Positions 1 through 23,228 of a stretch of DNA of 32,000 nucleotides are shown piece by piece. The notes under the pieces were generated by a model. The model ran no database searches, was not told where the DNA came from, and saw only the letters and a list, made by a program, of their open reading frames with translations. Where the stretch lies: positions 1,680,001 through 1,712,000 of the forward strand of contig NC_014833.1 of assembly GCF_000179635.2 (NCBI RefSeq). The letters run 5' to 3'. Made by a program: the position numbers and the translations under genes. Every line of letters begins with the position of its first letter. Positions within the stretch are counted from its first letter, which is position 1. Source of the DNA: Ruminococcus albus 7 = DSM 20455. GTDB lineage: Bacteria; Bacillota; Clostridia; Oscillospirales; Ruminococcaceae.

Positions 1-1
1 G

Positions 2-1822
2 ATAAAGCAGGTTGAGAACGGCAAGACCACGACCTATACCTTTGACAAGCAGAACAGGCTCGTCAGAGCAACCATTTCGAGCGGTCAGAATGTTACGGTC
101 GAGGAGTATAGGTACGATTACGCAGGCAACAGAACTGCAAAAATAACCGAGGGCGAAACTACCAATTATGTAGTTGATACCAACAGTGCGCTTGCTCAGG
201 TCCTTTATGAAACTGACGGCACGGGCAGCTTGAAAACCTATTACACCAGAGGCAGTGAGCTTATTAGCTTACAGCGTGAGCACGAAGAACGCTACTATTT
301 GTATGACGGTCACGGCAATGTCAGAAGACTTACCGACGAGGACGGTGCTGTAACCGATACCTACGATTATGATGCGTTTGGAAACCTTACAGAGCATACG
401 GGCGAGACCGAGAACAGCTATCTCTATTGCGGTGAACAGTATGATGCAAATACAGGTTTCTACTATCTCCGTGCAAGATATATGAACCCGTCAACGGGGA
501 CATTTATCTCGATGGACAGCTATCAAGGCTCGATGTTTGATCCTGTAAGTCTGCATAAGTATCTGTATGCTAATGCGAATCCGGTGATGAATTGCGACCC
601 GACAGGTTATTTCACGATTGGGGAATGTGATGTCAGTGCAGCTATTCAAGGTGTTCTGGATAAGCTGATTACTCCTAAACTTATTCAGGTATTTAATCGT
701 ATCAACGATCTTGCCACTATTTATGAAACAGGTAAGCAAGTTGTAATGATCTTGACAGACCCTGATATGTCTGCATGGGATGTTGTGTTTGCCCTTGGTC
801 GTGGTGTTATCACAGGTTTGTTCATTAACCATATGTGTGCTATGAAACGCATTGGACCTATCATAAGTAAAATTATGGTTGGTTACGGTCTTGTGTCACA
901 ATGGGAAAGCATAATGGATGCCGCCAAAGACGGAGATTGGGATTTAGTTGCAACTCGTTCTATACAGTTTGTGGTTCAGCTTATCACAATGCACCAAAAC
1001 TGCTTTACCGGGGATACTCTGGTTGCGGCAGAGGACGGACAGATACGCATTGACGAAATTAAAGTCGGCGATAAGGTTTGGGCATATAATGTTGAAACCG
1101 GAGAAACCGAGCTTAAAGGAGTTAAGCAAGTCTACATTCACGAAACAGATGAGCTTTTACACCTATACACTTCTGTTGGTGCAATAGATACTACTTCTAA
1201 TCACCCATTTTACGTGCTTGGAGAAGGCTGGGTTGCCGCAGGTGACTTGGCTGTCGGCGATGAGATCTACTCTCTTGACGGAACGATTGGTATTGTCACC
1301 GGTTCTCAGTTTGAAAAGCTTGATGTGCCTATCAAGGTTTATAATCTTGAAGTTGCTGACTTCAATACATACTTTGTCGGCGATAATGCGGTTTTGGTGC
1401 ATAATTATTCTGATGGTGCAGATACAATGCACTATCCTAAGAAGGCACAAGATATCGATTTACGTGGTACAGGAACCAACTATCGTGATGCATTAGATAT
1501 CGCATTTGAACAGACTGGTTATCCAAAAGAACAGTTTATGGTTTCAAAGTGGGCAAGAGATATAAATGGTAAGTCTATACCAGTGGAATACATGGGACCG
1601 AATGGTTCATATGTTGACATAGATATAGCTCATTTGTCAAGTTTTGATAGAAATGGTAATTGGGCTACTGGACCAGATGTGCCACATGTAGGTTGGCAAA
1701 CTGGAAGAAGCAATAAAACAACAGGTCATATTTTACTTGATGATGTTCCAACAGGAAGAGATTATTGCTATTCTGATTTATCATCGCAAATCGCCAAAAT
1801 ATTAAAGCAATTCGGTTTATAA
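2..1822 (+). CDS. RHS/YD-repeat polymorphic toxin, C-terminal part (5' end lies upstream of the window). Layout: YD repeats, RHS core (ends at DPTG, ~nt 607), hydrophobic pre-toxin linker, PT-HINT (1001-1405), C-terminal toxin domain (1406-1819, family not recognised).
   Basis: Frame 2 is open from nt 2 (IKQVENGKTTTYTFDKQNRLV...), so the TTG at 230 in the ORF track is not the true start. YD-type repeats are present (YRYDYAGNR, YLYDGHGNVRRLTDEDG, YDYDAFGN). The RHS core signature reads YCGEQYDANTGFYYLRARYMNPSTGTFISMD...DPVSLHKYLYANANPVMNCDPTG. Hint motifs follow: CFTGDTLV...TSNHPFYV...VLVHN. Confidence 0.9.
   Translation: MKQVENGKTTTYTFDKQNRLVRATISSGQNVTVEEYRYDYAGNRTAKITEGETTNYVVDTNSALAQVLYETDGTGSLKTYYTRGSELISLQREHEERYYLYDGHGNVRRLTDEDGAVTDTYDYDAFGNLTEHTGETENSYLYCGEQYDANTGFYYLRARYMNPSTGTFISMDSYQGSMFDPVSLHKYLYANANPVMNCDPTGYFTIGECDVSAAIQGVLDKLITPKLIQVFNRINDLATIYETGKQVVMILTDPDMSAWDVVFALGRGVITGLFINHMCAMKRIGPIISKIMVGYGLVSQWESIMDAAKDGDWDLVATRSIQFVVQLITMHQNCFTGDTLVAAEDGQIRIDEIKVGDKVWAYNVETGETELKGVKQVYIHETDELLHLYTSVGAIDTTSNHPFYVLGEGWVAAGDLAVGDEIYSLDGTIGIVTGSQFEKLDVPIKVYNLEVADFNTYFVGDNAVLVHNYSDGADTMHYPKKAQDIDLRGTGTNYRDALDIAFEQTGYPKEQFMVSKWARDINGKSIPVEYMGPNGSYVDIDIAHLSSFDRNGNWATGPDVPHVGWQTGRSNKTTGHILLDDVPTGRDYCYSDLSSQIAKILKQFGL
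1001..1405 (+). repeat. HINT-domain coding block, copy 1 (5' homology handle of the toxin cassettes)
   Basis: Runs from Cys codon 1001-1003 (CFTGDTLV) to His-Asn 1400-1405. It aligns at the nucleotide and protein level with 2489-2896 and, for its 3' half, with 3790-3974. Confidence 0.85.
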
Positions 1823-1835
1823 GGGAGTGCTATTA

Positions 1836-2291
1836 ATGATTGAAGATTTAATAGAATATTGTGTTAAAGGTGATATTAGCTATCGAATTATATCAAACGA
1901 TGAGAAAGAAAAGATTAAAGGTTATATAAATGAACGATATCTTGATAAAAATAGAAAAAGTGGACGTACACTTTTCGACCATTTAAAAATCAGCGAAAGT
2001 GTTACTGCTGATGCTGTTGATTCATGGCAATGGTTGAAGCAGTTTTTCAAAGAGAAAAAGGCGGTTGCTTTTTTTAGATATGATGAAGAACAATACGTTG
2101 AATTGTATGATAGTAGTCTTTTCTTTGAATTCTATGATGATTATGCAGCAATTGAGTTCTATTTGATAGATTCAAATGGAGAATATCTATGCGGTTATAA
2201 TCATTCTCATTGTATTTTTACAATGGGAACTGCTGCCGATTGGTTAGAGAACAATGAGCAATATCGAAATTATTATGGATATGATTTGTGA
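1836..2291 (+). CDS. Candidate cognate immunity protein for the RHS C-terminal toxin (151 aa, acidic, no recognised family)
   Basis: An ORF lies immediately downstream of the toxin stop (1820-1822). RBS AAGGGAG at 1821-1827 sits 8 nt before ATG 1836; the GTG at 1827 in the track lies inside the RBS. The position is typical for a polymorphic-toxin immunity gene, and a strong terminator follows. Confidence 0.7.
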   Translation: MIEDLIEYCVKGDISYRIISNDEKEKIKGYINERYLDKNRKSGRTLFDHLKISESVTADAVDSWQWLKQFFKEKKAVAFFRYDEEQYVELYDSSLFFEFYDDYAAIEFYLIDSNGEYLCGYNHSHCIFTMGTAADWLENNEQYRNYYGYDL

Positions 2292-2360
2292 TTTGAATAT
2301 GTGGCTGATTGTCGAAAAAGTATAATGATATTTTCGATCTATTTGCCGAGGTCAAAATAA
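2277..2360 (+). repeat. 3' cassette handle, copy 1 (relic of an immunity-gene tail plus downstream sequence)
   Basis: GGATATGAT[TTGT]GATTTGAATATGTGGCTGATTGTCGAAAAAGTATAATGA...CTATTTGCCGAGGTCAAAATAA aligns with 3666-3744. A 4-nt indel (TTGT) creates the TGA stop of the first immunity gene. Confidence 0.8.
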
Positions 2361-2380
2361 ACTGACCTCGGCAATTTTTT
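2343..2380 (+). terminator. Rho-independent terminator after the toxin/immunity pair
   Basis: Perfect 12-bp stem TTGCCGAGGTCA / TGACCTCGGCAA with an 8-nt loop, followed by TTTTTT (2375-2380). Confidence 0.85.
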
Positions 2381-2389
2381 GCAAACCAC

Positions 2390-2418
2390 TTGACAAAACA
2401 TTAAACTTATGGCAAAAT
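2390..2418 (+). promoter_or_regulatory. Possible sigma-70-type promoter upstream of orphan cassette 1
   Basis: Perfect -35 TTGACA (2390-2395), 17-nt spacer, weak -10 CAAAAT (2413-2418) preceded by TGG. The -10 is weak and no RBS precedes ATG 2471, so this call is tentative. Confidence 0.3.
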
Positions 2419-2470
2419 ATAGATAAGCGAATGATTTTTTGTATGTTCAATACAGCTTCTGCTTTCACTC

Positions 2471-3256
2471 ATGTCTCTGCATCAGAACTGCTTTACAGGA
2501 GAAACACTTGTATCGACTGAGGACGGACAGAAGAGAATCGACGAGATAGAAGTCGGTGACAAGGTATGGGCGTATGACATATACACTGGAAAAACAGAGC
2601 TTAAAGAAGATCTGACAGTATATGTTCACGATGATGAGACAGAGATACTCCACCTTCACACAACAGCCGGCGACATAGACACAACAACAAATCACCCATT
2701 CTATGTAAACGGCAGAGGCTGGGTAGCTGCAGGCGACTTAACTGTTGGTGATGAGATTTATCAGCTTGACGGGTCAATTGCTGTTGTTACTGGTTCGCAG
2801 TTTGAGAAGCTTGATGTGCCTGTTAAGGTTTATAACCTTGATGTTGAAGATTTCCATTCTTACTTTGTTGGTGATGTGCCGGTTTTGGTGCATAATTATG
2901 GTGGTTCAAGTGATGATACTCCAAATACGCTCTACCATTACACAAATGAAAAGGGTCAAAATGCAATTTTAGAATCAAATGAATTGAAACCTTCGCTTAA
3001 AGCTAACAACCCAAATGATGCAAGATTTGGTGACGGTCAATATTTATCAGACCTTTTACCAGATGAATATTCGCCAATACAATTAGCGTCTCGGTTCATC
3101 CACAGACCAAACCGATACAAGTATACCCATTTTATAGAAATTTTAGTTGAAGGACTAAACGTTGTAAAAGGACGTGACGGAGTATATGTCATTCCTAATC
3201 AAGATTCTTTAGATTTGACTGGAAGAATTATACGATGGGGTAAAGTTGGGAGTTGA
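2471..3256 (+). CDS. Orphan toxin cassette 1: complete PT-HINT domain fused to a different C-terminal toxin (possible HYD1-type ADP-ribosyltransferase-like domain)
   Basis: The ORF starts 6 codons before the Hint Cys (MSLHQN-CFTGETLV). The Hint block 2489-2896 is homologous to 1001-1405 and ends VLVHN-YG. The tail LYHYTNEKGQNAILESNELKPS...ARFGDGQYLSDL resembles the H-Y-D signature of Tox-ART-HYD1 as I recall it (unverified). There is no RHS or delivery region and no RBS. Confidence 0.75.
   Translation: MSLHQNCFTGETLVSTEDGQKRIDEIEVGDKVWAYDIYTGKTELKEDLTVYVHDDETEILHLHTTAGDIDTTTNHPFYVNGRGWVAAGDLTVGDEIYQLDGSIAVVTGSQFEKLDVPVKVYNLDVEDFHSYFVGDVPVLVHNYGGSSDDTPNTLYHYTNEKGQNAILESNELKPSLKANNPNDARFGDGQYLSDLLPDEYSPIQLASRFIHRPNRYKYTHFIEILVEGLNVVKGRDGVYVIPNQDSLDLTGRIIRWGKVGS
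2489..2896 (+). repeat. HINT-domain coding block, copy 2
   Basis: Aligns with 1001-1405 over its full length and with 3790-3974 over its 3' half; I estimate ~93% nucleotide identity to the latter by eye. Confidence 0.85.
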
Positions 3257-3710
3257 TAGTACGGTATATATTTGTATTTCATTCTCTGATGATAAATATT
3301 ACATGGAACTAAATAAGGAAAATGTAGCTTTAAGAGAAATAATACTCCATTCAAAATCATCCATATTCGAGATATCATGTTTTGATGATTGTTTAGCAGA
3401 AGGAGAAGTGGACATTCGCCAAACTGAAGGAGAGATTCTAAAACTCACAAAAGAGCAATTCGAGGAAGTTTGGCAAGGCTATACCGCTCCGTGTAGACCT
3501 GAATGGAATAGAGTAAAAGAATCTATGACTATTGGTACACTTTTAAATATGAAACAGTGTTACATTTATCCGCAAGGAATTATACTTAAACAAAATCATA
3601 TAACAGGATTGTGTAAAAAAATTGACGATTTTTCGTTAAATAAAATTGTAACAGTAAAGATAACCGGGTATGATGATTTGAATATGTGGTTAATTGCCGA
3701 AAAAATATAA
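3246..3710 (+). CDS. Candidate immunity protein for orphan toxin 1 (about 154 aa)
   Basis: The ORF overlaps the toxin stop (3254-3256). Start is uncertain: TTG 3246 or ATG 3303. The C-terminus GYDDLNMWLIAEKI is the intact version of the tail relic seen at 2277-2330. Confidence 0.6.
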   Translation: MGVDSTVYICISFSDDKYYMELNKENVALREIILHSKSSIFEISCFDDCLAEGEVDIRQTEGEILKLTKEQFEEVWQGYTAPCRPEWNRVKESMTIGTLLNMKQCYIYPQGIILKQNHITGLCKKIDDFSLNKIVTVKITGYDDLNMWLIAEKI

Positions 3711-3744
3711 TAAGATTAGAACTATTTGCCCAGGTCAAGATAAT
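3666..3744 (+). repeat. 3' cassette handle, copy 2
   Basis: GGGTATGATGATTTGAATATGTGGTTAATTGCCGAAAAAATATAATAA...CTATTTGCCCAGGTCAAGATAA aligns with 2277-2360. The terminator hairpin present in copy 1 is missing here. Confidence 0.8.
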
Positions 3745-3789
3745 CTCAAAGTTTCGTCTCTTTTTTTGGTACTGTAAAGACAATTTGTC

Positions 3790-3974
3790 GGCTGGGTTTG
3801 GTTGCCGCAGGTGACTTGGCTGTTGGTGATGAGATTTATCAGCTTGACGGTTCAATTGCTGTTGTTACTGGTTCGCAGTTTGAAAAGCTTGATGTGCCTG
3901 TTAAGGTTTATAATCTTGAGGTTGAGGATTTCCATTCCTATTTTGTTGGTGATGTGCCGGTTTTGGTGCATAAC
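3790..3974 (+). repeat. HINT-domain coding block, copy 3 (3' half only)
   Basis: Near-identical to 2712-2896 by eye. Ends at CAT AAC (His-Asn) 3969-3974. Confidence 0.8.
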
Positions 3975-4229
3975 TATGGGAATGATGAACATCTGCCAAC
4001 ATATAATACGCCAGGAACTGGACCATTAAATAAATACGACGAATACGGTAATATTATCCAAACAAAGTATTATGACGAGTATGGTAGGCAAATAGGTTGG
4101 GTCGATTTTACCGATCATGGGTATCCTGATGTCCATACAATACCACATTGGCACGAAGTGATTTATAATGTTATTTTCCCAGATGGAAAAATAATCAATC
4201 ATAGAATGGATCCAAATCCACCATTTTAA
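3798..4229 (+). CDS. Orphan toxin cassette 2: 5'-truncated HINT (C-terminal half only) fused to a third, unrelated toxin domain. Probably not expressed on its own.
   Basis: Homology to the other HINT blocks begins abruptly at ~3790 (GGCTGGGTT) with a 5-nt TGGTT insertion. The protein reads (G)WVAAGDLAVGDEIYQLDG...VLVHN-YGNDEHL... The tail has YDEYGN / YYDEYGR repeats and the His-rich stretch DHGYPDVHTIPHWHE. The only start available is TTG 3798. Confidence 0.6.
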   Translation: MVAAGDLAVGDEIYQLDGSIAVVTGSQFEKLDVPVKVYNLEVEDFHSYFVGDVPVLVHNYGNDEHLPTYNTPGTGPLNKYDEYGNIIQTKYYDEYGRQIGWVDFTDHGYPDVHTIPHWHEVIYNVIFPDGKIINHRMDPNPPF

Positions 4230-4553
4230 CTAATTCCTGAATCTGCAAAGTTCATGTGTATTAAAATAGTAAAAGCATTGATATTTCAACGTTAAATTTA
4301 CTGTTTCATAGTACAATTATAGGTTATCAGTTGGGTGAAGTCACAAATAGTTATTATATCGCTAATAAACTGCGTTATATTGCTGTATTTTTCGCATATT
4401 TGTTGATTGAACTTTGCGGATTAAGGTAATTCTTTGTAAATTCTAAATGTTGTATGTCGAATGAAAAGAGTAATGTATTATTTGTTTGTACATTATTTTT
4501 AAAAAGGTATTCAATATTTAGCATTAACGATATACTAATAGGGAGGGATAAAG

Positions 4554-4901
4554 ATACTATTTACTTTAGATGATAGTAACTTTAATACTAGTAAGATCAT
4601 CAATATAATAAATGCAATTTCTACCATTGATAATAAAAATACTTATTTTATAATTAAACAATACGAGATTGCATTATTAAATAAGTACTATGATTGTTAT
4701 GAATTACCTAATGATTTAATAACAACTTTTGTTAAAATGCAAATTAAGAGTAATGGATTTGCTTGCATAGATTATTCCATGTTTATGCAGTCATTAAATG
4801 AATGCAGGACAGTATATTATGGTTTAATTGAAGCATATTCCTCTAATAATAAGCTTTTTCAATTAAAAATCCATGACGGTGATATTATAGAAATCGATTA
4901 A
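4554..4901 (+). pseudogene. Immunity-like open frame with no canonical start codon (115 sense codons). It may continue by a frameshift to the stop at 5024-5026.
   Basis: The frame is open from 4542 to TAA 4899-4901 in ~25% GC DNA, where stop codons should be frequent. A strong RBS GGGAGGG (4541-4547) lies 6 nt before ATA 4554. The first ATG/GTG/TTG in frame is far downstream, so the ORF track missed it. A second open frame (4891-5026, ...KAAQQLGIEKVKVDVIISYEESNELGITQLEIFKPVPKQYR) abuts it. The merged length of ~157 codons matches the neighbouring immunity ORFs. Confidence 0.4.
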
Positions 4902-5036
4902 AAGCGGCACAACAACTTGGCATTGAAAAGGTAAAAGTTGATGTAATAATATCATATGAAGAGTCTAACGAGTTGGGAATAACTCAATTAGAAATATTTA
5001 AGCCTGTTCCAAAACAATATAGGTAATGATGGTAAA

Positions 5037-5504
5037 ATGGGATTTGAAAGTTATTCATGCAAAGTTGTGATGGACAATTCAGATAATGATGGTGTACTTA
5101 ATGAATTTAACAATACTGTATCAAATATTTTGGATTTAAAAGTAAAAGAATTTAATAGTTACTATATTTATAAAAATATAGAAATTTATGTAGAAAAAGA
5201 AAACTTTGTTTCTTTTATTTTGAAGGGTTGTTTTATTTGTTATAATCAAGGATTAGATCAAATGATCGATATAATTAATTGTATAAAAGAAGTTGGTAAT
5301 GTACGCATATATTGCTTAGATCAATTAATTGATGATATTTCTTTTAAAACAAATATAAAGATACTATACAAAGAAAAGCAGGATTTTTTTGATAAAAAAT
5401 ATTCTAATATTATAGTAGAAACAACTTGTACTGGTTTTTATAGAATAAAGCCCTATATTGACTTTATGTTAAAAATAAAAAGTAAATTAGGGTTCTATAA
5501 ATGA
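5037..5504 (+). CDS. Hypothetical AT-rich protein (155 aa), possibly an orphan immunity protein at the end of the toxin locus
   Basis: Intact ORF in very AT-rich DNA, with size and composition similar to the other immunity candidates. Only a weak RBS. GC content rises sharply immediately after its stop (TGA 5502-5504). Confidence 0.55.
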   Translation: MGFESYSCKVVMDNSDNDGVLNEFNNTVSNILDLKVKEFNSYYIYKNIEIYVEKENFVSFILKGCFICYNQGLDQMIDIINCIKEVGNVRIYCLDQLIDDISFKTNIKILYKEKQDFFDKKYSNIIVETTCTGFYRIKPYIDFMLKIKSKLGFYK

Positions 5505-5924
5505 GCAATTTCGTCAAACTTCACGAATTTCGCGCCGAAAAGCGTACCAAAATACGCATCAGCGAAGTGGGATTCCAAAGGGGGGCACCCACACGGTGGT
5601 GCGCCCCTTATGGTGGGGTACGGGGCAAAGCCCCATTAAAATCAGCTGCGAGACTACAAACTTACCGGTCTGCACACTATTTCGAGCAGCTGCTACTTCC
5701 TTTGGGCGATATGAGCAACAGCGAACGAGCATACCCCCGAACCGTCACCGCAAAGCCGTCAAAATTGAGATTTAGTTCTGTGAAACTGATTACTAAAAAG
5801 TACGAATTTCCAATAACCCTTAGCCTACTGGCGCACCTGATTTCCGTTTCACACAAGTCATAATCAGAATTGTGGAGCATTCCACAACAGGCATAAACCC
5901 TATTGAAACGAATAACCGCAAGCT

Positions 5925-5967
5925 CTCGGAAACGCTCTGTAAGCGTTTCTGAGGGCTTTTTCTTTTC
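5925..5967 (+). terminator. Strong plus-strand intrinsic terminator inside the ORF-free left arm of the element
   Basis: 12-bp stem CTCGGAAACGCT / AGCGTTTCTGAG (one G-U pair), loop CTGTA, then GGCTTTTTCTTTTC. Confidence 0.6.
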
Positions 5968-6138
5968 AGCGGTTAGTTTTCCGCTCCGCAGGCTCGGACG
6001 GTGATGTGGAGCTTTTCCGTTCGTCTGACGGTCAAGCTGAGGTCTGCTCGGTGATGCCGTGACGGAGTTCATACGTAAGCGTATAACCCCCCGCATCATA
6101 AAAGCAAACAGCCGGGCAGATAACACCCGGCCGTAACA

Positions 6139-6677
6139 TCATATTCTGGCTTTGATTTCTCCATTTCTCTTTGCGTCCATGTATATTTCTTTGAAATCAG
6201 CTTTGCTGTTCGGACCGAATATGATCGGCATAACAGATACCAGGCCATCGGAAATGATCGCATTTTTAAATGGCAGAAGCGCTGCATCAAGCAAAGTTGG
6301 CATCGGTGCATTTCTCAGCATTTCCTCCCAACTGCTGACAATGCCGTTTACAAGAAAAACAGAATTGTCATCGATCGATATAAATACCGATCCCTTTTTC
6401 CAATGTCGCTCAATGATAAATCTGCCGGTGATGCACCCTTTCCAGCTTTTAAGTATCTCCATGTGTTCTTCGGGCAGATCCGATCGCTCAAGATAATCAT
6501 CAATGATCCATGTCCGTTCCCATAAAAGTGGGCAACCTCCGCAGCGTCCTGTGGGTCGATCATTCCTTGCCCGAAATAATCTTCCTCAGGAAGTATATGA
6601 TATTCTCTGTTCACATAGTCAAGCAGTGGAAAAAACAGTTCATAAAACAGCTTTGCATCTTCATTACTAAGTTTCAT
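6139..6677 (-). pseudogene. IS66 copy A passenger gene of unknown function (~180 aa if repaired), apparent frameshift
   Basis: Two overlapping ORFs (6348-6677 and 6139-6462) read as a single protein if one base is restored near the T-run at ~6515-6525. Its ATG overlaps the tnpC stop (GGAGGGAAGAAAATGAAA). A hairpin (GCCGGG...CCCGGC, ~6110-6132) lies between the ORF and the IS end. Confidence 0.5.
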
Positions 6678-8177
6678 TTTCTTCCCTCCATGGTAATAAT
6701 ATCGTCCCCGCAGGCTGTGAAAACAGCTCGGTCAGGTATTTCTCAGCATCAACACCGTTCGCCTGTGCAGTTGAAATGATCGAATACAGCGTTGCACTTG
6801 ATCTGGCTCCGTTTGCTGTATTTGAAAACAGCCAATTTTTTCGGCCTAACGCAAACGGTCTTATTGCGTTTTCGGCTCTGTTGTTGTCGATAGGCACGTC
6901 TCCGTTTTCAAGAAACGTGTAAAGATATTTCCGTTCATTCAACGCATATCTTACTGCATCTGTCAGCTTGCCCTTACCACTGACCTGAACATTTTCAAGC
7001 CACGCAAAAAACTCGTCAAGCAAAGGCTTTACCTTCACAAGGCGCTGTTTATATCTGTATTCTGTGGAGCTGTCGGCAAGCAGATTTTCTTCGTGATATA
7101 TCTTGTTGAAATATTCTACTGCCTTTGCCGCAACAGAAGTGCTGTGCAGCTTTTGGTCGTTCGGAAGAGCCTGAATAAAACCACGCCTTGCATGAGTCAT
7201 ACAGCCGCATCGCTTAGCACCCTCGACTGCATTGTAGGCATCGTATCCGTCACAGATAAGATAGCCGATAAATCCTTTCAGGAAATTCGAGGCGTGCTCA
7301 CCCTTTCGTGTCGGCTGATAATCGAAAATGATGATGCTCCTGTCATTCATTTTGCCGTTGCAGTAGACCCACATTCTTGATGTCGTGGTAGGCTTTCGGC
7401 CTTCCTCGTGAAGCACCTGAACGGTCGTTTCATCGGCATGGATCATCTGCCCTGCGATAAGCATCTCATGCATTTTCTCCACAATCGGCAAACACCATTT
7501 TTCGGCAGCAGTGCCTACCCAATTAGACATAGTCGCTTTGAGCAGAGGTATGTTTTTGGAATTAAAGTCCTTTTCCTGACGGTGCAGAGGTACTGACTTT
7601 GCATATTTTCGTAGATGATATGAGCCAGAAGTTCGGGAGAGCAATAGCTTCCCGGGATCATAGCGTGAGGATATGGCGCACGGATGATATGACAAGGTTC
7701 GTCCCTTTCTTCGGGCTTTTCTCCGCACTCGGGACACTTGTACTTATGTACTATATGCCTGCGGATATGATATTTTGGCGGCGTAAATATAAGTTCATCG
7801 TAAGCCTTTTCGGGAGTCAGTTCTTCCATTTCGGCGCCGCATATTTCGCATACCGGGTTGTCAATTTTGTGATGTTCTTCTTTTACAGGCAGATTGTTCA
7901 TCCATTCATCGTGAGTGCGTTTTTTCTTGCGCTTGTGTTCGGGAACAGTAATTGTTTCGGCAGATTTAGCTGCGGATTTTTCTTCATTGTTTCCGAACAT
8001 GGAAAGCTGAACACCGAACTCCTTTTCCATAACAACAGATGTCTGCTCTGTTTTTCTTCCGAATATCTGCTTTCTGAACCACGCTAACTGCTGATTGGCA
8101 AGTGCTAGTTCTTCCTTGAGAACAGCGTTTTCATTACGGAGCGATACAATTTCCGATGTCATATTTGGTTCGGACAT
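6667..8177 (-). pseudogene. tnpC: IS66 transposase TnpC, copy A, single frameshift
   Basis: The N-terminal frame (MSEPNMTSEIVSLRNENAVLKEEL..., zinc-ribbon CEICG...CPECG) and the C-terminal frame (...HADETTVQVL...DGYDAYN...NRAENAIRPFALGRKNWLF, DDE region) overlap. The shift maps to an A4 run (7606-7609, minus strand) that is A5 in copy B. RBS GGAGGGG lies before ATG 8177. Confidence 0.85.
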
Positions 8178-8269
8178 AAAGCACCCCTCCGTTCGTGATG
8201 ATACTTTAATGATACCACGAAAAGAGGGGCTTTTCAAGCACATATTCTGAATATTCGGTAAGTATTGCC

Positions 8270-8626
8270 TTAATACAGCGCCCCCGGCTTTCCCTCACGG
8301 ATAGCCTTCGGCTGCTCTATTTTCAAGCCTTCCAGAAGCCAGCGAATTTGCTGAGATGTGAGCATTACTGCTTCGGTCTCACTGCGCGGCCACTGGAATC
8401 TTCCGTTGTCAAGGCGCTTGTACAACAGCAGAAAACCATCGCCCTCCCACAGCAGACCTTTGATGCGGTCACAACGTCTGCCGCAGAACAAAAACAATGC
8501 TTTCGAGAACGGGTCAAGTCGAAGCTGAGCCTGAACGATAGTCGCAAGTCCGTCTATCCCGCGTCGAAGGTCGGTGTATCCCGTAACAAGATAGACCTGT
8601 GCGTCCGCTGCCAGATCATTCAGCAT
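8270..8626 (-). CDS. tnpB: IS66 accessory protein TnpB (Orf2), copy A, intact
   Basis: The 118-aa product is identical in sequence to the copy B product (16789-17145). It has the typical IS66 Orf2 size and position, overlapping the tnpA end. Confidence 0.85.
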   Translation of the reverse strand: MLNDLAADAQVYLVTGYTDLRRGIDGLATIVQAQLRLDPFSKALFLFCGRRCDRIKGLLWEGDGFLLLYKRLDNGRFQWPRSETEAVMLTSQQIRWLLEGLKIEQPKAIREGKPGALY

Positions 8627-8938
8627 AGCTCATGCACCAAAGCGGTCAGAGTGTCCGCAGATATATCTGCCGGAAGAGATATTTGAAGTCCGTTTTTCTC
8701 AATGCGGATATTTTCGTTTGAGCAAGGAACTGATACAGGAACGATGGTCGGAGAATTTTCGATATACTTTTCTACGAACTTTTCTTAGGCGGTTGTAATA
8801 CGTGTTTGGCTTGATCCCTTTTTCTTTGCACCATTCCCGGATCGTCAGACCGCTTGCCTGCTGTGCTTTGATCTGCGCAGACCATTCCTGAAGCTGCATT
8901 TCTTTTTTGATTGTTGTGATGGATGTTGTTTTGTCCAT
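8620..8938 (-). pseudogene. tnpA: IS66 TnpA (Orf1, HTH), copy A, frameshifted
   Basis: Same N-terminus as copy B (MDKTTSITTIKKEMQLQEWSAQIKAQQASGLTIREWCKE). An extra A at ~8773 (CGT-A-GAAAAG versus CGTGAAAAG in copy B) changes the frame and gives a premature stop at 8699. Confidence 0.75.
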
Positions 8939-9038
8939 ACCTGTTACCTCCTTGTCTAATCGTCTCCAATGAACTCCATGGATCAATTTGGATTATTCAA
9001 TTTACTTCATGGTGTTCCTTGGAGTTTATTATACTTTA

Positions 9039-9638
9039 TTAGACTTCGGTGGGGTAGGTGCTGGGGGTTATACGCTTACGTTCATACTCACGCACACGGC
9101 GGTAAAAGGTATTTGCCGACATATCCATTCTCCGCATAAAATCACGCCCCGTGATGTGCTTTGATTTCCATTCCCCATAGAGCTGCCCGAACCTCGTCCA
9201 GTCGGTGGGGATAGGCTTTCGCCCGGTGTACTTGCCCTGTGCCTTAGCGATCTCGATGCCCTCACGCTGTCGCTGTTTAAGCTGCTCACGCTCCAACTGA
9301 GAGAGTGCAGCGAACACAGTCAACATAAATTTACCCGCAGGCGTGTCGGTGTCAATTTTCTCCTTGTGGCTGATAAGGGTAACACCCTTTTCCGTCAGGG
9401 TGTCGATGATGTTCAGCAAGTCTTTCGTGGAGCGTCCGAGACGGCTGATGCTCTCGATATAGAGAGTATCGCCCTCACGCACATAGTCCAGCATAGCCCT
9501 GAGCTGAGGGCGGTCTGTGTTCGCTCCTGATAGCTTCTCGGAGAAGATGCGGTCAACCTGATAGTCGCACATGATCTCCTGCTGTCTTGCCGTCTCCTGA
9601 TGTTCGGTGGAAACTCTGATGTATCCGATTTTGCTCAT
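9039..9638 (-). CDS. Small serine recombinase (resolvase/invertase family) whose 3' end is replaced by the IS66 terminus
   Basis: MSKIGYIRVSTEHQ...RLGRS...C-terminal HTH. RBS AGGA lies 9 nt before ATG 9638; an alternative ATG at 9656 overlaps the relaxase stop. Codons after ...RRVREYE are encoded by the IS end (RKRITPSTYPTEV*). Removing the IS and one TSD copy restores ...REYELRHGITEQTSA* with its stop at 6032-6034, and the restored length (612 nt) is in frame. Confidence 0.85.
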   Translation of the reverse strand: MSKIGYIRVSTEHQETARQQEIMCDYQVDRIFSEKLSGANTDRPQLRAMLDYVREGDTLYIESISRLGRSTKDLLNIIDTLTEKGVTLISHKEKIDTDTPAGKFMLTVFAALSQLEREQLKQRQREGIEIAKAQGKYTGRKPIPTDWTRFGQLYGEWKSKHITGRDFMRRMDMSANTFYRRVREYERKRITPSTYPTEV

Positions 9639-16152: not shown

Positions 16153-16477
16153 AACCTTTCAGATCAGTATCAGTTATTCAAGCGGATAAGCAACTGAGTG
16201 ATCGTTATATCAGTTTACTAAGTTTGCCGTCCTTGGATAATTATACCACAATAATATCTTCAAGTAAAGTGTTTTGATGCGCGGGTTAACACGGTATCTT
16301 GGTACAGCTTTTTCTGCACATAAAAAAGCTCCGACAGTAAGCGTATAACCACACGCACCTACCTCACCAAAGTCTAATGAAGTATAATAAACTCCAAACA
16401 ACACCATGAAGTAAATTGAATAATCCAAATTGATCCATGGAGTTCATTGGAGACGATTAGACAAGGAGGTAACAGGT

Positions 16478-16795
16478 ATGGACAAAACAACATCCATCAC
16501 AACAATCAAAAAAGAAATGCAGCTTCAGGAATGGTCTGCGCAGATCAAAGCACAGCAGGCAAGCGGTCTGACGATCCGGGAATGGTGCAAAGAAAATGGG
16601 ATCAAGCCAAACACGTATTACAACCGCCTAAGAAAAGTGCGTGAAAAGTATATCGAAAATTCTCCGACCATCGTTCCTGTATCAGTTCCTTGCTCAAACG
16701 AAAATATCCGCATTGAGAAAAACGGACTTCAAATATCTCTTCCGGCAGATATATCTGCGGACACTCTGACCGCTTTGGTGCATGAGCTATGCTGA
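16478..16795 (+). CDS. tnpA: IS66 TnpA (Orf1, HTH), copy B, intact
   Basis: RBS AAGGAGG before ATG 16478. The stop overlaps the tnpB start (ATGCTGA). Confidence 0.85.
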   Translation: MDKTTSITTIKKEMQLQEWSAQIKAQQASGLTIREWCKENGIKPNTYYNRLRKVREKYIENSPTIVPVSVPCSNENIRIEKNGLQISLPADISADTLTALVHELC

Positions 16796-17145
16796 ATGAT
16801 CTGGCAGCGGACGCACAGGTCTATCTTGTTACGGGATACACCGACCTTCGACGCGGGATAGACGGACTTGCGACTATCGTTCAGGCTCAGCTTCGACTTG
16901 ACCCGTTCTCGAAAGCATTGTTTTTGTTCTGCGGCAGACGTTGTGACCGCATCAAAGGTCTGCTGTGGGAGGGCGATGGTTTTCTGCTGCTGTACAAGCG
17001 CCTTGACAACGGAAGATTTCAGTGGCCGCGCAGTGAAACAGAAGCTGTAATGCTCACATCTCAGCAAATTCGCTGGCTTTTAGAAGGTTTGAAGATCGAA
17101 CAGCCGAAAGCTATCCGTGAAGGAAAACCGGGCGCGCTGTATTAA
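16789..17145 (+). CDS. tnpB: IS66 TnpB (Orf2), copy B, intact
   Basis: 118 aa, protein identical to copy A. Nucleotide differences from copy A are synonymous and are confined to the 3' third. Confidence 0.85.
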   Translation: MLNDLAADAQVYLVTGYTDLRRGIDGLATIVQAQLRLDPFSKALFLFCGRRCDRIKGLLWEGDGFLLLYKRLDNGRFQWPRSETEAVMLTSQQIRWLLEGLKIEQPKAIREGKPGALY

Positions 17146-17237
17146 GGCAATACTTACCGAATATTCAGAATATGTGCTTGAAAAGCCCCTCTTTTCGTGG
17201 TATTATGGATGTATCATCACGAACGGAGGGTTGCTTT

Positions 17238-18750
17238 ATGTCCGAACAAAATATGACATCGGAAATAGTATCACTCCGTAATGAAAATGCTGTCCTCAAA
17301 GAAGAACTAGCACTTGCCAACCAGCAGCTGGAATGGTTCAGAAAGCAGATATTCGGAAGAAAAACGGAGCAGACAGCTGTTGTCATGGAGAAAGAATTCG
17401 GTGTTCAGCTATCGATGTTCGGGAAAGAAGAAAAGTCTGTATATAAAGAGCATGGAACAATAACTGTTCCCGAACACAAGCGCAAGAAAAAGCGAACTTA
17501 TGATGACTGGATGAGCAGTCTTCCTGTTAAAGAGGAACATCATGAGATCAAAGATCCCGTCTGTGAGATATGCGGCGCGAAAATGGTGGAGATCGGTGAT
17601 GAAAAGGCTTATGATGAGCTTGTATATTCACCCGCCAAATTCTATATCCGCAGACATATCGTACATAAATACAAGTGTCCCGAGTGCGGAGAAAAGCCCG
17701 AAGAAAGAGACGAACCTTGTCATATCATCCGTGCGCCATATCCTCACGCTATGATCCCGGGAAGCTATTGCTCTCCCGAACTTCTGGCTCATATCATCTA
17801 CGAAAAATATGCAAAAGTCAGTACCTCTGCACCGTCAGGAAAAGGACTTTTTTTAAATTTCCCAAAAAAAGATACCTTTGCTAAAAGCGACTATGTCTAA
17901 TTGGGTAGGTGCTGCCGCTGAAAAATGGTGTCTGCCGGTCGTTGAGAAAATGCATGAAATGCTTATCGCAGGACAGATCATCCACGCTGATGAGACAACA
18001 GTGCAAGTTCTTCACGAGGAAGGCAGAAAAGCCACATCGGTATCGAGGATGTAGGTGTACTGCAACGGCAAGATGAACGACCGCAACATCATCATTTTCG
18101 ATTATCAGCCCACAAGGAAAGGCGAGCATCCCTCGAATTTCCTTAAAGGCTTTATCGGATATCTGGTCTGTGACGGATATGATGCCTACAACGCTGTCGA
18201 GAGTGCGAAGCGGTGCGGCTGTATGACTCATACCAGGCGTGGTTTTATTCAGACTCTTCCGAACGACCAAAAGCTGCACAGCACTTCTGTTGCGGCAAAG
18301 GCAGTAGAATATTTCAACAAGATATATCACGAAGAAAATCTGCTTGCCGACAGCTCCACAGAATACAGATATGAACAGCGCCTTGTGAAGGTAAAGCCTT
18401 TGCTTGACGAGTTTTTTGCGTGGCTTGAAACTGTTCAGGTCAGCGGTAAGGGCAAGCTGACAGATGCAGTAAGATATGCGCTGAATGAACGGAAGTATCT
18501 GTATACATTTCTCGAAAACGGAGACGTGCCTATCGACAACAACAGAGCCGAAAACGCAATAAGACCGTTTGCTGTCGGCAGACGCAATTGGTTATTCAGT
18601 AACACAGCCAACGGAGCAAAAGCGAGCGCCGCACTGTATTCAGTCATTTCAACTGCACAAGCGAACGGTCTTGATGCCGAGAAATACCTGACCGAGCTGT
18701 TTTCACAGCCTGCGGGAACGATATTATTACCATGGAGGGAAGAAAAATGA
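17238..18750 (+). pseudogene. tnpC: IS66 transposase TnpC, copy B, with three lesions
   Basis: An extra A in the run at 17813-17816 shifts the frame. A 9-nt T/A-rich insertion carries an in-frame TAA (17854-17856). A TGG-to-TAG nonsense change lies at 18052-18054 (SRM*VYCNGK, versus SRMWVYCNGK in copy A). Confidence 0.85.
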
Positions 18751-19526: not shown

Positions 19527-22500
19527 TCAGTTCTTGAAAGCTATGCGGAAGAAGTTATAGAGGTGAGCTCTTATACAGTTATCTCCGTGATAGCCGCCGT
19601 TTACATAGTGCCATATATGAGGCACACCATTCTTTTCAAAGCTGGAGTGGTAGTTTTTGGGATTGTCATAAACGGTCTTATCGTCGCTGCCGGCAGTTAT
19701 CATCAGGAAGTAGGGCTGATCATCACCGCTCCATCTGAATGAACCTGATACTCCGGGAGCAGGGCATATCGCACCGATGTAGCCGAATAAGTCGGGGCGC
19801 TTCATTCCGATCAGGAGCGATTCACGTCCGCCCATTGAGAAGCCTGTGATAGCAGTATTGTCCTGACCTGTTTTGATACTGAAATTTTTCGCAATATATG
19901 GCATAAGATCCTTGGTCAGATCGTTTATGAAGTTATCGTATGCCTGATTGTTTGTTTCATCCATACCTGTACAGGATCTCAGGGTAGGACTTGAGAATAC
20001 ATCAGGGAATACGCAGATCATTTCCTTGGCTGCTCCTTCTGCAATAGCATTTCCTATCATTTCGCGGGTATGCATATCGGCATTTCCTTTTGTGAGCATT
20101 CTGTCGATACCCTCATAGTAGCCGTGAAGGATGTACATTACGGGATATTGCTTGTTGGGATCATAGTTCGGGGGCAGAAGGATATTTACGTCCTTTTGTC
20201 TGTTGCAGGTGGTCGAATAGTAGCTCTTTTTCAGTATCTCACCGTAAGCTACACCATTCTTTGAACTATTTGCTGAATCAGGCTCTTTTTCAACTATACC
20301 GTTCTGGACCTTTGCGGTGAAATCCTTCATTGAAAGATGTGTGTTTATTACAGGAAATTCTTTGATCTCACCCAGAAGATATGACCTGAGCAGGGCTTCG
20401 TCGTTTTCATCAACAGCACCGCTGCGGTCTATATCAGCATTGTATTTTGAAGCACTGTTGTTTATACCCCTGATCATGCCTTTTTTGAGTTCTATAAGAT
20501 CCTTTATCGTGATATTTCCGTCAAGATCAACATCGCCTGTTACGGGTGCTGCAGATCTGTTTATCTTAGTGCCTGCAGGAGCAGCAATGATCTCATCTAT
20601 ATAGAAATCACAAAGCTCCTGTGTGGTTTCTGCCACGAGAACAAGATTCTCGGCACCGCTTGGGATAGTGTACGAAGGATTGTACAGTTGTACGAACTTT
20701 CCTCGGTCGGCATAAGCTTGTGCTATCTTGTCATATTTCGTTTCGCCGTTCAGGTCGTACTGTAATGTTAGTTTGAACTCAGTGGTGTCTGAACCTTCAA
20801 GATTTGCAAAGCAGGCACTGAATGTGTAGCTCTTGCCCGGTACGAATGCACTTGTGCTCAGGGACTTCTGTCCGCCGTTCCATGCTCCGCTCCTTCCCGA
20901 AAGGCTGAGTGATTTGGAGCCTTTATACTTGGCAGAGGAGCTTGCAGCAGCTGTGCATCCGCCTCTTGCAGACCAGTCATCTGTACCGTTTTCAAAAGTA
21001 TCATGGAAAATGTAGCTGCTTGTTTCGGTTCCGGAAGTGTTTCCTTGTGATACTGATGCGGAAGGTGCATCTATCTTTGTCCCGGCGGGAGCAGCTATAA
21101 CTTCATCAATATAGAAATCACAGTTCTCCTCGGTGGTCTCAGCTACCAGCACAAGATTAGTAGCACCGGATGGGATAGTATATGAAGAATTGTAAAGCTG
21201 TACATACTTGCCGCGGTCGCCTGTTTCCTGAGCTATCTTGTCATAATTTGTCTGACCGTTCAGATCGTACTGTAATGTGAGCTTGAATTCTGCAGTGTCA
21301 GGACCTTCCCGATTTATAAAGCAGGCGCTGAACGCATAGCTTTTGCCCGGTACGAATATATTGGTGCTCAATGATCTCATTCCGCCGTTCCATGCTGCAG
21401 TTCTTTCCGAAAGACTTAATGAGTATGATCCGCTGTATTTTGAATCAGTGCTTACAGCAGCTGTACAGCCGCCTCTTGCAGACCATTTACCAATGCCGTT
21501 TTCAAAAGTATCATGGAGCAGGTAGCCGTCCGCATCAGGTTCAACTACGGAAGGCGGATTCCACTCAGCGCGTTCATAGTCAAAATAGTCAACATCAACG
21601 AAACCGCCTGTTGACTTTGTAGCGTAGCTGAATATAGCATTTCTGTATCCTGTGAAAAGTTTTAGATCATAAGTCATACTCAGCTGACTGCCTATCTTTT
21701 TCCATGATATACCGTCAAGAGAGTAATAAAAATTAACCTTGTCTATGTTGTTGGATACGTTATAATTTCCGTCAACGGTATTGAACTGAAATTCTGTTTT
21801 TAAAAATACAGTACTTCCGCTGAATGATACTTCTTCCTGTATCTTGTCAGCGCTGTTCATTACATCGTTTCCACCGTAATTGCCATTTGTAGCCATGTAG
21901 ATCTTTTTTTCACCGCTGTCTGTAATACGCACTCCTATATTTCCGTAGTTATACTGGAAAGCTGAAAGACCTGCATAGTCGCCCGGTTTCATATTGGATA
22001 CATCCATTTTTATAATGCCGGAACAGGAGGGACCTTCTGTTCTCATGGTCAGTGTATTTCTGGCATTCATTATGCTTTTTGCTGTGTAACCGTTTTTAAG
22101 GCGCAGCCAGCCCGGTCTTTCGGTAAGGGACCAGTACCTGTTGTCAGGGTTATGGTTCCACTGCCATTCAGGTTTAAGCTTATTATTGCTGTAAACAAAT
22201 TCGTCATCCACGGCAAGCTGTGTGCCTTTGTGATCACCGGGAATATCCAGTACTACAGGTGCTTTGCCGTTTACACCCATGATCGGCCAGTCGTTCTGCC
22301 AAGTAACAGGGACAAGAACAGGTATACGTCCGACCGCACCATGATCCTGGAAAAGAAGTCCGTACCAATCACCGTCGGGTGTATCTACTATACCGCCCTG
22401 AGCCACTCCTGAACCGTAGGTGCCGAGTCCCGAATCAAGTACGGTCTTGCCTTCAAAAGTTCCGGTAAGGCTCTTGCTGCGGTAGCAAAGTTCGATCCTT

Positions 22501-23228
22501 TTGCTGCCGCTTGGCCATGCTATAAGGAATACGTAGTACCAGCCGTTTATTTTCTGTACATGAGCGCCCTCGCCCGCAAGTCCCGAAAGACCTGTCCTGA
22601 TGATAGTACGCTCCTGTGCGCCGTATGCAAATCCTGTCATCTGTGAGTTGAGCTCCTTGATCTTGATATTGCCGTCGCCGCCGTAAACGAGATAGTTTCT
22701 TCCGTCGTCATCGAAAAGGATAGAAGCATCATGGTACATACCGCTTATCTCACTTTTTGTCCAGCTGCCGTTCTCGATATCATTTGTCTTGTAAATATAT
22801 GACTTGTTCGTGCCGTAGCTTCCGAAAAATACAAAGAACGTTCCTTTGTGATATCTCAGACTTGCAGCCCATGAACCGTGAGAATAGTCATGCTGGCCGT
22901 TTGAAAGCGTCTGCTTAGCACCGTCAGCCATGGTATCATAAACATAGGAGCATATCTCCCATGATACAAGGTCTTTCGATTTCATAACAGGCACGCCGGG
23001 GCTGAAGTACATGGTAGTACTTACCATATAGTAAGTATCACCGACCCTTATTATATCAGGGTCGGGAACATCTGCCCATATTATTGGGTTAGCTACCTGT
23101 CCTGTTTCAAGAGCGTGTGCAGTTGTCACAGGCATCTCTCCGCAAGCGGCTGCCATACAGGATGCTGCAAGTGCCGCTGATGACAATACTGACAGTAGTC
23201 TTTGGGTTATCGGTTTTGGTCTTGACAT
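19527..23228 (-). CDS. Secreted multidomain cellulosomal hemicellulase: signal peptide, GH43, beta-sandwich domain, two CBM22-like (CBM_4_9) modules, dockerin, CE1-type esterase
   Basis: RBS GGGAGGA before ATG 23228 and a hydrophobic signal sequence. GH43 N-terminal motif NPIIWADVPDPDIIRVGDTYYMVSTT...KSKDLVSWE. Two 150-aa repeats (HDTFENG...WSARGGCTAA...FYIDE). Dockerin GDVDLDGNITIKDL...NADIDRSGAVDENDEALL. Esterase motifs YPVMYILHG and GFSMGG. Confidence 0.9.
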   Translation of the reverse strand: MSRPKPITQRLLSVLSSAALAASCMAAACGEMPVTTAHALETGQVANPIIWADVPDPDIIRVGDTYYMVSTTMYFSPGVPVMKSKDLVSWEICSYVYDTMADGAKQTLSNGQHDYSHGSWAASLRYHKGTFFVFFGSYGTNKSYIYKTNDIENGSWTKSEISGMYHDASILFDDDGRNYLVYGGDGNIKIKELNSQMTGFAYGAQERTIIRTGLSGLAGEGAHVQKINGWYYVFLIAWPSGSKRIELCYRSKSLTGTFEGKTVLDSGLGTYGSGVAQGGIVDTPDGDWYGLLFQDHGAVGRIPVLVPVTWQNDWPIMGVNGKAPVVLDIPGDHKGTQLAVDDEFVYSNNKLKPEWQWNHNPDNRYWSLTERPGWLRLKNGYTAKSIMNARNTLTMRTEGPSCSGIIKMDVSNMKPGDYAGLSAFQYNYGNIGVRITDSGEKKIYMATNGNYGGNDVMNSADKIQEEVSFSGSTVFLKTEFQFNTVDGNYNVSNNIDKVNFYYSLDGISWKKIGSQLSMTYDLKLFTGYRNAIFSYATKSTGGFVDVDYFDYERAEWNPPSVVEPDADGYLLHDTFENGIGKWSARGGCTAAVSTDSKYSGSYSLSLSERTAAWNGGMRSLSTNIFVPGKSYAFSACFINREGPDTAEFKLTLQYDLNGQTNYDKIAQETGDRGKYVQLYNSSYTIPSGATNLVLVAETTEENCDFYIDEVIAAPAGTKIDAPSASVSQGNTSGTETSSYIFHDTFENGTDDWSARGGCTAAASSSAKYKGSKSLSLSGRSGAWNGGQKSLSTSAFVPGKSYTFSACFANLEGSDTTEFKLTLQYDLNGETKYDKIAQAYADRGKFVQLYNPSYTIPSGAENLVLVAETTQELCDFYIDEIIAAPAGTKINRSAAPVTGDVDLDGNITIKDLIELKKGMIRGINNSASKYNADIDRSGAVDENDEALLRSYLLGEIKEFPVINTHLSMKDFTAKVQNGIVEKEPDSANSSKNGVAYGEILKKSYYSTTCNRQKDVNILLPPNYDPNKQYPVMYILHGYYEGIDRMLTKGNADMHTREMIGNAIAEGAAKEMICVFPDVFSSPTLRSCTGMDETNNQAYDNFINDLTKDLMPYIAKNFSIKTGQDNTAITGFSMGGRESLLIGMKRPDLFGYIGAICPAPGVSGSFRWSGDDQPYFLMITAGSDDKTVYDNPKNYHSSFEKNGVPHIWHYVNGGYHGDNCIRAHLYNFFRIAFKN
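20562..21014 (-). repeat. CBM-coding tandem repeat, unit 2 (aa ~739-889)
   Basis: Offset of 510 bp (170 aa) from unit 1. The mirrored antisense ORFs 20833-21015 and 21343-21525 show the same periodicity. Confidence 0.8.
21072..21524 (-). repeat. CBM-coding tandem repeat, unit 1 (aa ~569-719)
   Basis: See unit 2. The protein repeats align along their whole length (KLTLQYDLNG(Q/E)T(N/K)YDKIAQ...NLVLVAETT). Confidence 0.8.

Follow-up and report, generated by a model that had tools for sequence, protein, structure and literature searches.

The first 5,504 nucleotides (nt) of the DNA analysed here hold an RHS polymorphic-toxin locus of Ruminococcus albus 7 = DSM 20455. The window, as the whole stretch is called below, is 32,000 nt long and covers positions 1,680,001 to 1,712,000 of the forward strand of contig NC_014833.1 (assembly GCF_000179635.2). 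All positions are those of the window, and the features of the locus lie on its plus strand. The locus comprises the 3' end of a long RHS gene with its toxin tip, a presumed immunity gene and a terminator, followed by two orphan cassettes in which a toxin tip is led by a whole or partial HINT domain. An earlier note had described an RHS polymorphic-toxin locus with two orphan toxin cassettes, and these features are present where it placed them. Loci of other genomes and metagenomes are given as L numbers.

The Main RHS Gene and Its Immunity Gene

The reading frame of the main gene runs from position 2 to 1822 with no stop up to the window edge. It is the 3' end of a gene for a protein of 3501 amino acids (aa) (GCA_000621285.1). 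The part at 2-607, open to the window edge, is the end of the RHS shell and consists of RHS/YD repeats and a core that closes at DPTG. In the upstream 3116 aa of the main protein, RHS_repeat (PF05593) matches 14 stretches with 432 bits, the N-terminal 385 aa lying outside the stretches examined; one repeat falls within the window. The Rhs_assc_core model (TIGR03696) matches aa 123-202 with 63.6 bits (cut-off 32.5) and terminates at DPTG (nt 596-607). Between the core and the HINT domain is a linker of 131 aa (608-1000; aa 203-333) that belongs to no Pfam family. The earlier note had called it a hydrophobic linker of about 130 aa. The length holds, but the linker is only moderately hydrophobic, with a Kyte-Doolittle mean of 0.42, a peak of 1.47 and no clear transmembrane segment. 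It is kept in relatives (56 tblastn matches among the fetched loci). The PT-HINT domain of the main gene (1001-1405) is recognized by PF07591 with 98 bits (curated cut-off 27.7) and by motifs read in the sequence, namely Cys1 (CFTG), TTSNHPF and the terminal VLVHN. NCBIfam models of intein N- and C-termini match as well. The toxin tip (1406-1822, stop codon included) carries an Ntox47 domain at 1406-1819, a predicted BECR-fold RNase (PF15540, 86 bits, cut-off 25, profile positions 5-118 of 120).

Relatives of the main gene carry other tips. In L003 the sequence is 69% identical over main aa 14-484 and then continues into a barnase-type Ribonuclease tip instead, and many different toxin Pfam families are found behind the same HINT among relatives in the protein database. 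A conserved delivery region is thus joined to unrelated C-terminal toxin domains in relatives, and the main gene is a polymorphic toxin. The 3501-aa protein would form an RHS shell with the linker, the PT-HINT and the Ntox47 RNase as its C-terminal cargo. The cargo would be released in two steps. The RHS core would act as an aspartyl protease and cut at DPTG/Y, where the slash marks the cut. The HINT would cut at VHN/Y through a Cys1 thioester and/or Asn cyclisation. HINT autoproteolysis that frees the toxin is a prediction in the literature as well.

The main gene is followed by Imm1 (1836-2291), which encodes 151 aa and is preceded by a ribosome-binding site (RBS), AAGGGAG, at 1822-1828. In L007, where an Ntox47 tip (69% identical) sits on a full-length RHS gene, a 67%-identical homologue of Imm1 follows the tip directly; a weak one follows the Ntox47 tip of L005. 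Position and conserved linkage point to Imm1 as the presumed Ntox47 immunity gene. It would be made from the same transcript as the main gene and would protect the producer. A strong intrinsic terminator at 2343-2380, with a 12-bp stem that has seven GC pairs (2343-2374) and then TTTTTT, would close the operon. The order given by the earlier note, which runs from the RHS core (DPTG) through linker, PT-HINT and toxin to an immunity-like open reading frame (ORF) and a terminator, is borne out by the Pfam and NCBIfam matches and by reading of the sequence.

Orphan 1, a HINT-ART Cassette

Orphan 1 (2445-3256) has a complete PT-HINT domain and a Tox-ART-HYD1 tip. Its homology to the main gene starts at 2445, 12 codons ahead of the HINT Cys. 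An ATG lies at 2471, the HINT at 2489-2896 and the tip at about 2897-3253. The HINT scores 92 bits with PF07591 and retains CFTG, the TT(S/T)NHPF block and VLVHN, as the main gene does. The tip matches Tox-ART-HYD1 (PF15633) with 93.8 bits (cut-off 25) over the whole profile (1-97 of 97). The assignment of the tip rests on this profile match and is clear, and its ADP-ribosyltransferase (ART) activity is predicted.

The orphan 1 tip is followed by Imm2 (3246-3710), whose TTG start at 3246 overlaps the toxin stop; an alternative ATG at 3303 gives the 135-aa protein called by NCBI. Imm2 has no match in Pfam or NCBIfam. In 18 of 29 metagenome loci (L084-L110), a homologue with 28-43% identity starts where the ART-tip ORF ends or just past it. 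From its position and this conserved linkage, Imm2 is presumed to be the ART immunity gene. Its family is unannotated, has members of about 135-158 aa and travels with ART-HYD1 tips. L001 differs: behind its ART tip, which is 70% identical, come DUF6881 and a Macro-domain protein, plausibly an immunity that works by removal of ADP-ribose.

A stand-alone gene is one explanation of orphan 1. A promoter-like site (2390-2418), TTGACA-17-TG-CAAAAT with 10 of 12 matches and an extended -10, lies just past the terminator and about 50 nt 5' of orphan 1. The cassette would then have its own promoter, start at ATG 2471 and make an independent protein, as has been suggested for the TTG-initiated, BIL-led mafB-CT cassettes. 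In its favor, the ATG is present, the HINT of orphan 1 is complete and keeps every catalytic motif, databases contain very many short HINT-toxin ORFs, and Jamet et al. term such MafB cassettes 'potentially expressed' (PMC4287609). Against this, orphan 1 has no RBS, signal peptide or secretion domain, and promoter-like sites in the region are not more numerous than expected from shuffles. The ATG is no evidence of a start because the Met is inherited from main-gene sequence (TMHQNC). The continuous spread of truncation points among HINT orphans, described below, would be expected of recombination debris and not of a defined gene. We consider this explanation highly improbable, although the intact orphan ORFs and the promoter-like site keep it alive. 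It is likewise very unlikely that transcription from 2390-2418 and a start at ATG 2471 yield a stand-alone HINT-ART protein of orphan 1 whose HINT is catalytically used. If this were true, the HINT might serve for self-processing or for loading onto another carrier. The HINT-led short ORFs, which outnumber full-length genes by about 3.5:1 in the gut Clostridia sample, would then be a functional class and not debris.

Orphan 2 and the End of the Array

Orphan 2 (3789-4229) holds the distal 60 HINT codons and an 83-aa all-beta tip. The similarity to the main gene sets in at about 3789, which is position 81 of the HINT model. Its ORF (3798-4229) is made up of the HINT remainder at 3798-3977, which corresponds to positions 81-143 of the hidden Markov model (HMM), and the tip at 3978-4226. 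PF07591 matches with 41 bits at profile positions 76-136 only. Cys1 and the TxxH block are absent, and VLVHN is the only catalytic motif kept. The tip scores 20.8 bits against Ntox24 (PF15529), which is below the cut-off of 24 (E 4.8e-4), and none of three relatives of the tip matches Ntox24. Its AlphaFold2 model (pLDDT 72.7) is all-beta like the described Ntox24. The PDB fold search gave no match; the weak top matches are RHS beta-hairpins, which fit the YD-like YDEYG motifs of the tip. A family assignment was sought by homologue search, a Pfam scan of each member, AlphaFold2 and the PDB fold search and was not obtained, and on profile and model the tip appears only Ntox24-like.

The HINT domains of the two orphans agree with the earlier note, which had a complete one at 2471-3256 and a distal part at 3798-4229, interleaved with AT-rich ORFs. 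Its further statement that none of the three tips is confidently assignable does not hold. Ntox47 and Tox-ART-HYD1 score at three to four times their Pfam cut-offs, and only the third tip is left with a mere resemblance. PT-HINT and Rhs_assc_core are also above their cut-offs in the profile searches of the tips and the HINT and RHS regions. The note was right that the orphans have neither a delivery region nor a convincing RBS. In-frame codons upstream of the HINT match number 12 in orphan 1 and 16 in orphan 2, and reading of the sequence finds no Shine-Dalgarno sequence ahead of 2471 or 3798. The orphan toxins are therefore probably not made.

Orphan 2 has no adjacent immunity gene and is followed by 310 nt without an ORF. 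An AT-rich open frame at 4542-4901 comes next (about 116 codons, 4554-4901). It has a strong, near-perfect Shine-Dalgarno sequence, GGGAGGG, at 4541-4547 and ATA as its only start, and it may be an immunity gene that has decayed or is unconventional. The array closes with an AT-rich ORF of 155 aa (5037-5504) that is called as a gene in the NCBI assembly and is immunity-like by size and position only. The ORFs at 4554-4901 and 5037-5504 have no Pfam or NCBIfam match even at E<=10 and no homologue among the fetched loci. A ParB-like toxin remnant at 4895-5027 was considered and ruled out, with no Pfam or NCBIfam match even at E<=10. The AT-rich ORFs at 3246-3710 and 5037-5504 lie within DNA of GC 0.23-0.36. 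At 5504/5505 the GC content steps from 0.23 to 0.49; the array ends here and mobile-element DNA starts. The intergenic stretches 2289-2470, 3711-3797 and 4230-5036 were compared with 110 loci by blastn for a conserved element ahead of the orphans, and nothing meaningful was found.

It could be that the orphans are decaying relics, with dead toxins and with immunity genes that alone, if anything, are kept against neighbours still firing those toxins. Orphan 2 suits this explanation well, as its HINT cannot fold or cleave alone because it has no Cys1 and no TxxH block. It also has no RBS, a degenerate terminator copy and a neighbouring ORF with an ATA start. Fragmentary, frameshifted HINT pieces are found in many relatives, and mobile-element DNA cuts the array off at 5505. 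The toxin ORFs themselves argue the other way, because both are uninterrupted and the match of the ART domain covers its whole Pfam profile (1-97 of 97, 94 bits). In addition, the TTG at 3246 that overlaps the orphan 1 stop would permit translational coupling. Complete decay of the toxins is possible, but we find it doubtful. The two orphans are better seen as toxin tips that were displaced or imported, and a scar behind Imm1 bears on this.

A Scar Behind Imm1

Past the Imm1 stop, a stretch of 77 nt (2288-2364) matches the end of Imm2 and the first arm of a terminator (3674-3746) at about 87% identity. The stretch contains an out-of-frame remnant of the last 11 codons of an Imm2-type gene (2289-2325; about 87% identity to 3674-3710). 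Read out of frame, 2290-2325 gives DLNMWLIVEKV and a stop, against DDLNMWLIAEKI and a stop at the end of Imm2. The counterpart behind orphan 1 (3674-3770), aligned to 2289-2378, consists of the Imm2 tail and a degenerate terminator copy that has lost its second stem arm and kept its T-run. The junction of the scar lies on a microhomology, GG(A/G)TATGAT (8 of 9). Homology between Imm1 and Imm2 was considered as a source of the common tail and is ruled out (BLASTP E=24), with only the last 77 nt or so in common. Imm1 is complete because its 67%-identical homologue in L007 stops at the same place. We read the scar as what is left of an older cassette, with an Imm2-type gene at its end, that Ntox47-Imm1 overwrote; it marks a past tip replacement. 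The block stands behind two unrelated immunity genes.

Similarity Between the HINT Copies

The HINT-coding DNA is the only sequence that the orphans and the main gene have in common, and the common stretch stops 3 nt short of the last HINT codon. In-register similarity among the three HINT copies extends over 258-455 nt, far beyond chance. The main gene (957-1408) and orphan 1 are 72.7% identical over 455 nt with a longest exact run of 20 nt, and the main gene and orphan 2 are 82% identical over 178 nt with a longest exact run of 24 nt. In the distal HINT, the orphans are 92% identical to each other over 180 nt, whereas the main gene is 79-82% identical to both. The dN/dS ratio is 0.07-0.17 in all HINT comparisons. 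The copies therefore diverged under selection while encoding working HINT domains. At the protein level the identity of the orphan 1 HINT to the main HINT of the same locus is 69.6%, below the 80-81% that it reaches with the main-gene HINTs of L006 and L007, which are two other species. By these identities, both orphans share a HINT lineage apart from that of the present main gene. Successive displacement or import accounts for this better than a reservoir homogenised locally.

The earlier note had seen the orphans as a silent reservoir that could replace the active tip by recombination. In its active form this explanation has the orphans kept for regular tip swaps by homologous recombination between HINT copies, as with the orphans of Salmonella Rhs genes. 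The handle is in frame. Since the homology runs to 3 nt short of the last HINT codon, a crossover between HINT copies would join an orphan tip to the main gene in frame. Both orphan ORFs are intact, and the HINT copies have been under purifying selection. The same crossover would remove the current tip and Imm1 along with it, and orphan 2 would bring no adjacent immunity gene in return (310-nt gap). No trace of gene conversion is seen between the HINT of the main gene and those of the orphans. RecA recombination needs about 20-30 nt of uninterrupted identity, and its efficiency falls steeply with divergence. Re-fusion of orphans whose handles are 73-82% identical is therefore possible but should be rare. 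The only experimentally shown activation of an orphan, which serves as a precedent for the reservoir, used a handle of 522 bp at 95% identity in Salmonella Rhs (PMC3967940). A regularly used reservoir at this locus seems unlikely to us. The low identity of the handles and their exact runs of at most 24 nt speak against it, and the scar and the separate HINT lineage point to displaced or imported former tips.

HINT Copies in Other Genomes

One genome per species was scanned with an alignment of the HINT domain, which gave 77 loci. Six-frame ORFs of these loci were searched with an HMM built from the alignment. The 77 species loci contain 127 HINT copies, and about 86 of the 110 classifiable ones are orphans; these counts are approximate, since a single frameshifted copy is in some cases split into several fragments. 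Full-length genes, taken as those with 1000 aa or more upstream, account for 24 copies. The orphans include 17 with a complete HINT and less than 100 aa upstream, 16 with HINT and linker, 13 with HINT, linker and a piece of RHS, and 40 with a 5'-truncated HINT that starts anywhere from position 11 to 118. A further 17 copies are cut by a contig end. A HINT orphan lies downstream of the main gene in 8 of the 19 full-length genes that have at least 2 kb of downstream sequence.

In 10 of 15 pairs of main gene and orphan, taken from 11 loci, the common DNA stops at most 6 nt from the HINT end; a limit of about 50 nt takes in 13 pairs. By this comparison, variability in the family has a fixed boundary at the HINT end, and the start point of the orphans is not fixed. 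Since the start is not fixed, HINT-anchored orphans are one part of a continuum that reaches from the RHS core to deep in the HINT. The earlier note had named the HINT-coding sequence as the shared handle, and it is indeed the only sequence shared in R. albus. It is not a new principle, because orphans of this type are known in Neisseria (PMC4287609), and the truncation points are spread. Some handles are near-identical, as in L001 (99%, 935 nt), L065 (99%, 1676 nt) and L032 (99%, 1612 nt), and such long handles in other species speak for the reservoir. In the other loci handles are 73-91% identical over 100-450 nt, and the R. albus window is at the low end of this range. The architecture is common among relatives, and the R. 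albus locus is a well-preserved but ordinary case.

The protein-database searches had suggested that full-length proteins are rare. This was dropped, as the searches returned no protein longer than 917 aa even though the 3501-aa protein of the window itself exists. An array of orphans at L003:10001-16170 has no full-length RHS gene upstream and lies beside an rve integrase fragment. Its ORFs of 917 aa and 549 aa encode an RHS piece, a HINT and a toxin, and they are accompanied by immunity genes.

Cassettes in Main and Orphan State

The tips of the R. albus locus are found in different states elsewhere. The Ntox47 tip is on a full-length gene with an Imm1 homologue in L007, in orphans in L005 and L052 and in a fragment without a handle in L073. 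The ART tip has 547 representative relatives. In all 150 matches listed, it lies within about 16 residues of the C-terminus, in proteins of 103-4590 aa. In 29 metagenome loci the contexts upstream of the ART tip differ and include the RHS core directly, a hydrophobic linker and other regions.

An RHS gene for 2312-2315 aa is shared by the human-gut contigs L096 and L091/L110, with 99% identity over 6.3 kb. The main tip of L096 is an ART/Imm2-type cassette (63% identical), which in L091/L110 forms a 238-aa orphan lying 2.6 kb past a different tip. The handle in these contigs is not the HINT, and their main gene has no HINT. The search for tip swaps in related genomes that the earlier note had in mind thus found a cassette of the right type in main and orphan state, but in another species and with a handle other than HINT. 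Judged from these alignments, cassettes do change position between the main and the orphan state. The alternation at strain level counts in favor of the reservoir as well. When L096:1531-8914 is set beside L091:115-10766, several small ORFs precede the orphan, and HINT-led orphans are seen further downstream.

A Model for the Locus

Taken together, we think it probable that the locus consists of an expressed operon of RHS-HINT-Ntox47 and Imm1 and of two displaced or imported tip cassettes, and that re-fusion of these cassettes by HINT recombination is rare. The orphans would be former or imported toxin tips that were displaced by successive replacements of the 3' end of the main gene. Each orphan would have kept the length of HINT that lay beyond the junction: orphan 1 has the full domain, and orphan 2 its distal 60 codons. 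The immunity genes of the orphans may still serve. The explanations of the orphans discussed above are not all mutually exclusive.

Several points weigh against this model. Both orphan toxin ORFs are intact, with 261 and 143 stop-free codons in AT-rich DNA, which is unlike long neutral decay and leaves room for a function. The promoter-like site at 2390-2418 and the ATG lie ahead of orphan 1. The junction that separates L096 from L091 gives no direction, and it would fit activation by deletion as well as displacement by insertion. At the R. albus locus, considered here in one strain, displacement and swapping are presumed, and expression, toxicity, protection, the cleavage chemistry and the silence of the orphans are predicted.

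DNA Beyond the Array

The mobile-element DNA past 5505 includes two inverted copies of IS66, one at 6677-9079 on the minus strand and one at 16337-18746 on the plus strand, which are 83-96% identical. The DDE transposase of each copy is split in two ORFs. Genes for a resolvase, a MobA/VirD2 relaxase, NikA/MobC, a large serine recombinase, AraC and HAD proteins lie between the copies. The possibility that an IS66 inversion moved the remainder of the array to 15.5-16.4 kb was ruled out, as the AT-rich ORF found there encodes a HAD hydrolase. A stretch of 169 nt at 5818-5981 is 79% identical to L076:8426-8594, which lies between the main RHS gene and an orphan of another species. It has no Rfam or Pfam identity and is a repeat or a small element. 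A GH43-CBM-dockerin enzyme is encoded at 19527-23228. A scan of the whole window with Rfam found no RNA family.

Comparison With Known Systems

Among the closest parallels are the Rhs systems of enterobacteria (Poole 2011; Koskiniemi 2014, PMC3967940). These also pair a full-length RHS gene, whose C-terminal toxin varies, with an immunity gene downstream. Their orphan pairs of tip and immunity gene lack a promoter and share part of the conserved 3' region with the full-length gene, and recombination can fuse an orphan to it (PMC3967940). The handle there is RHS-core DNA that ends at DPxGL, and delivery is by the type VI secretion system. In R. albus, which is a Gram-positive anaerobe, the core is separated from the toxin by a linker and a PT-HINT, the variable region begins after VHN and the handle has 73-82% identity instead of 95%.

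The class-1 MafB islands of Neisseria resemble the locus in the leading domain (Jamet et al. 2015, PMC4287609). Their orphans begin with a slightly 5'-truncated BIL (HINT) that is followed by a toxin and an immunity gene. The upstream full-length gene may carry a complete BIL, and the BIL-coding region was proposed as involved in variation. HINT-led orphans are therefore an already described phenomenon. The delivery module of MafB is DUF1020/MafB and not RHS. The MafB cassettes start with TTG and miss only 7 residues, while in R. albus one orphan has the whole HINT and the other its distal 60 codons.

Zhang et al. 2011/2012 (PMC3113570, PMC3482391) describe the same order of RHS, hydrophobic segment (in some cases), HINT and toxin in Firmicutes, toxin-then-immunity gene order and arrays of solo toxin cassettes. 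Nothing essential separates these systems from the R. albus locus. Their catalogue of toxin modules includes Ntox47, Ntox24 and ART-HYD1, the first two with HINT and RHS partners. HINT is placed as the releasing peptidase right before the toxin, and Firmicute toxins pair hydrophobic segments with HINT. That cassettes often start inside the HINT-coding region is not spelt out in the portions covered. The general scheme of main gene and orphans with a homologous region is drawn in a review (PMC4436062). The CdiA-CT/CdiI systems, which are demarcated by VENN, also have orphan pairs of toxin and immunity gene downstream of the main gene, with a short conserved pre-toxin segment kept. They belong to type V secretion in Gram-negatives, and their border is a short peptide motif, in contrast to the 135-aa autoprocessing domain found here. 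The locus opens no new question, and the principle of orphan cassettes, including those led by an intein-like domain, is already in the literature.

Significance

The R. albus locus is a clean, parsed example of RHS toxin diversification in Gram-positive anaerobes of the gut and rumen. Its variable region would lie right after a self-cleaving HINT, and old tips would accumulate downstream with variable lengths of HINT. For annotation, this means that short 'polymorphic toxin-type HINT domain-containing proteins' should not be counted as complete toxins. The survey may be of use here through the share of orphans among the HINT copies and through the previously unnamed immunity family beside ART-HYD1 tips.

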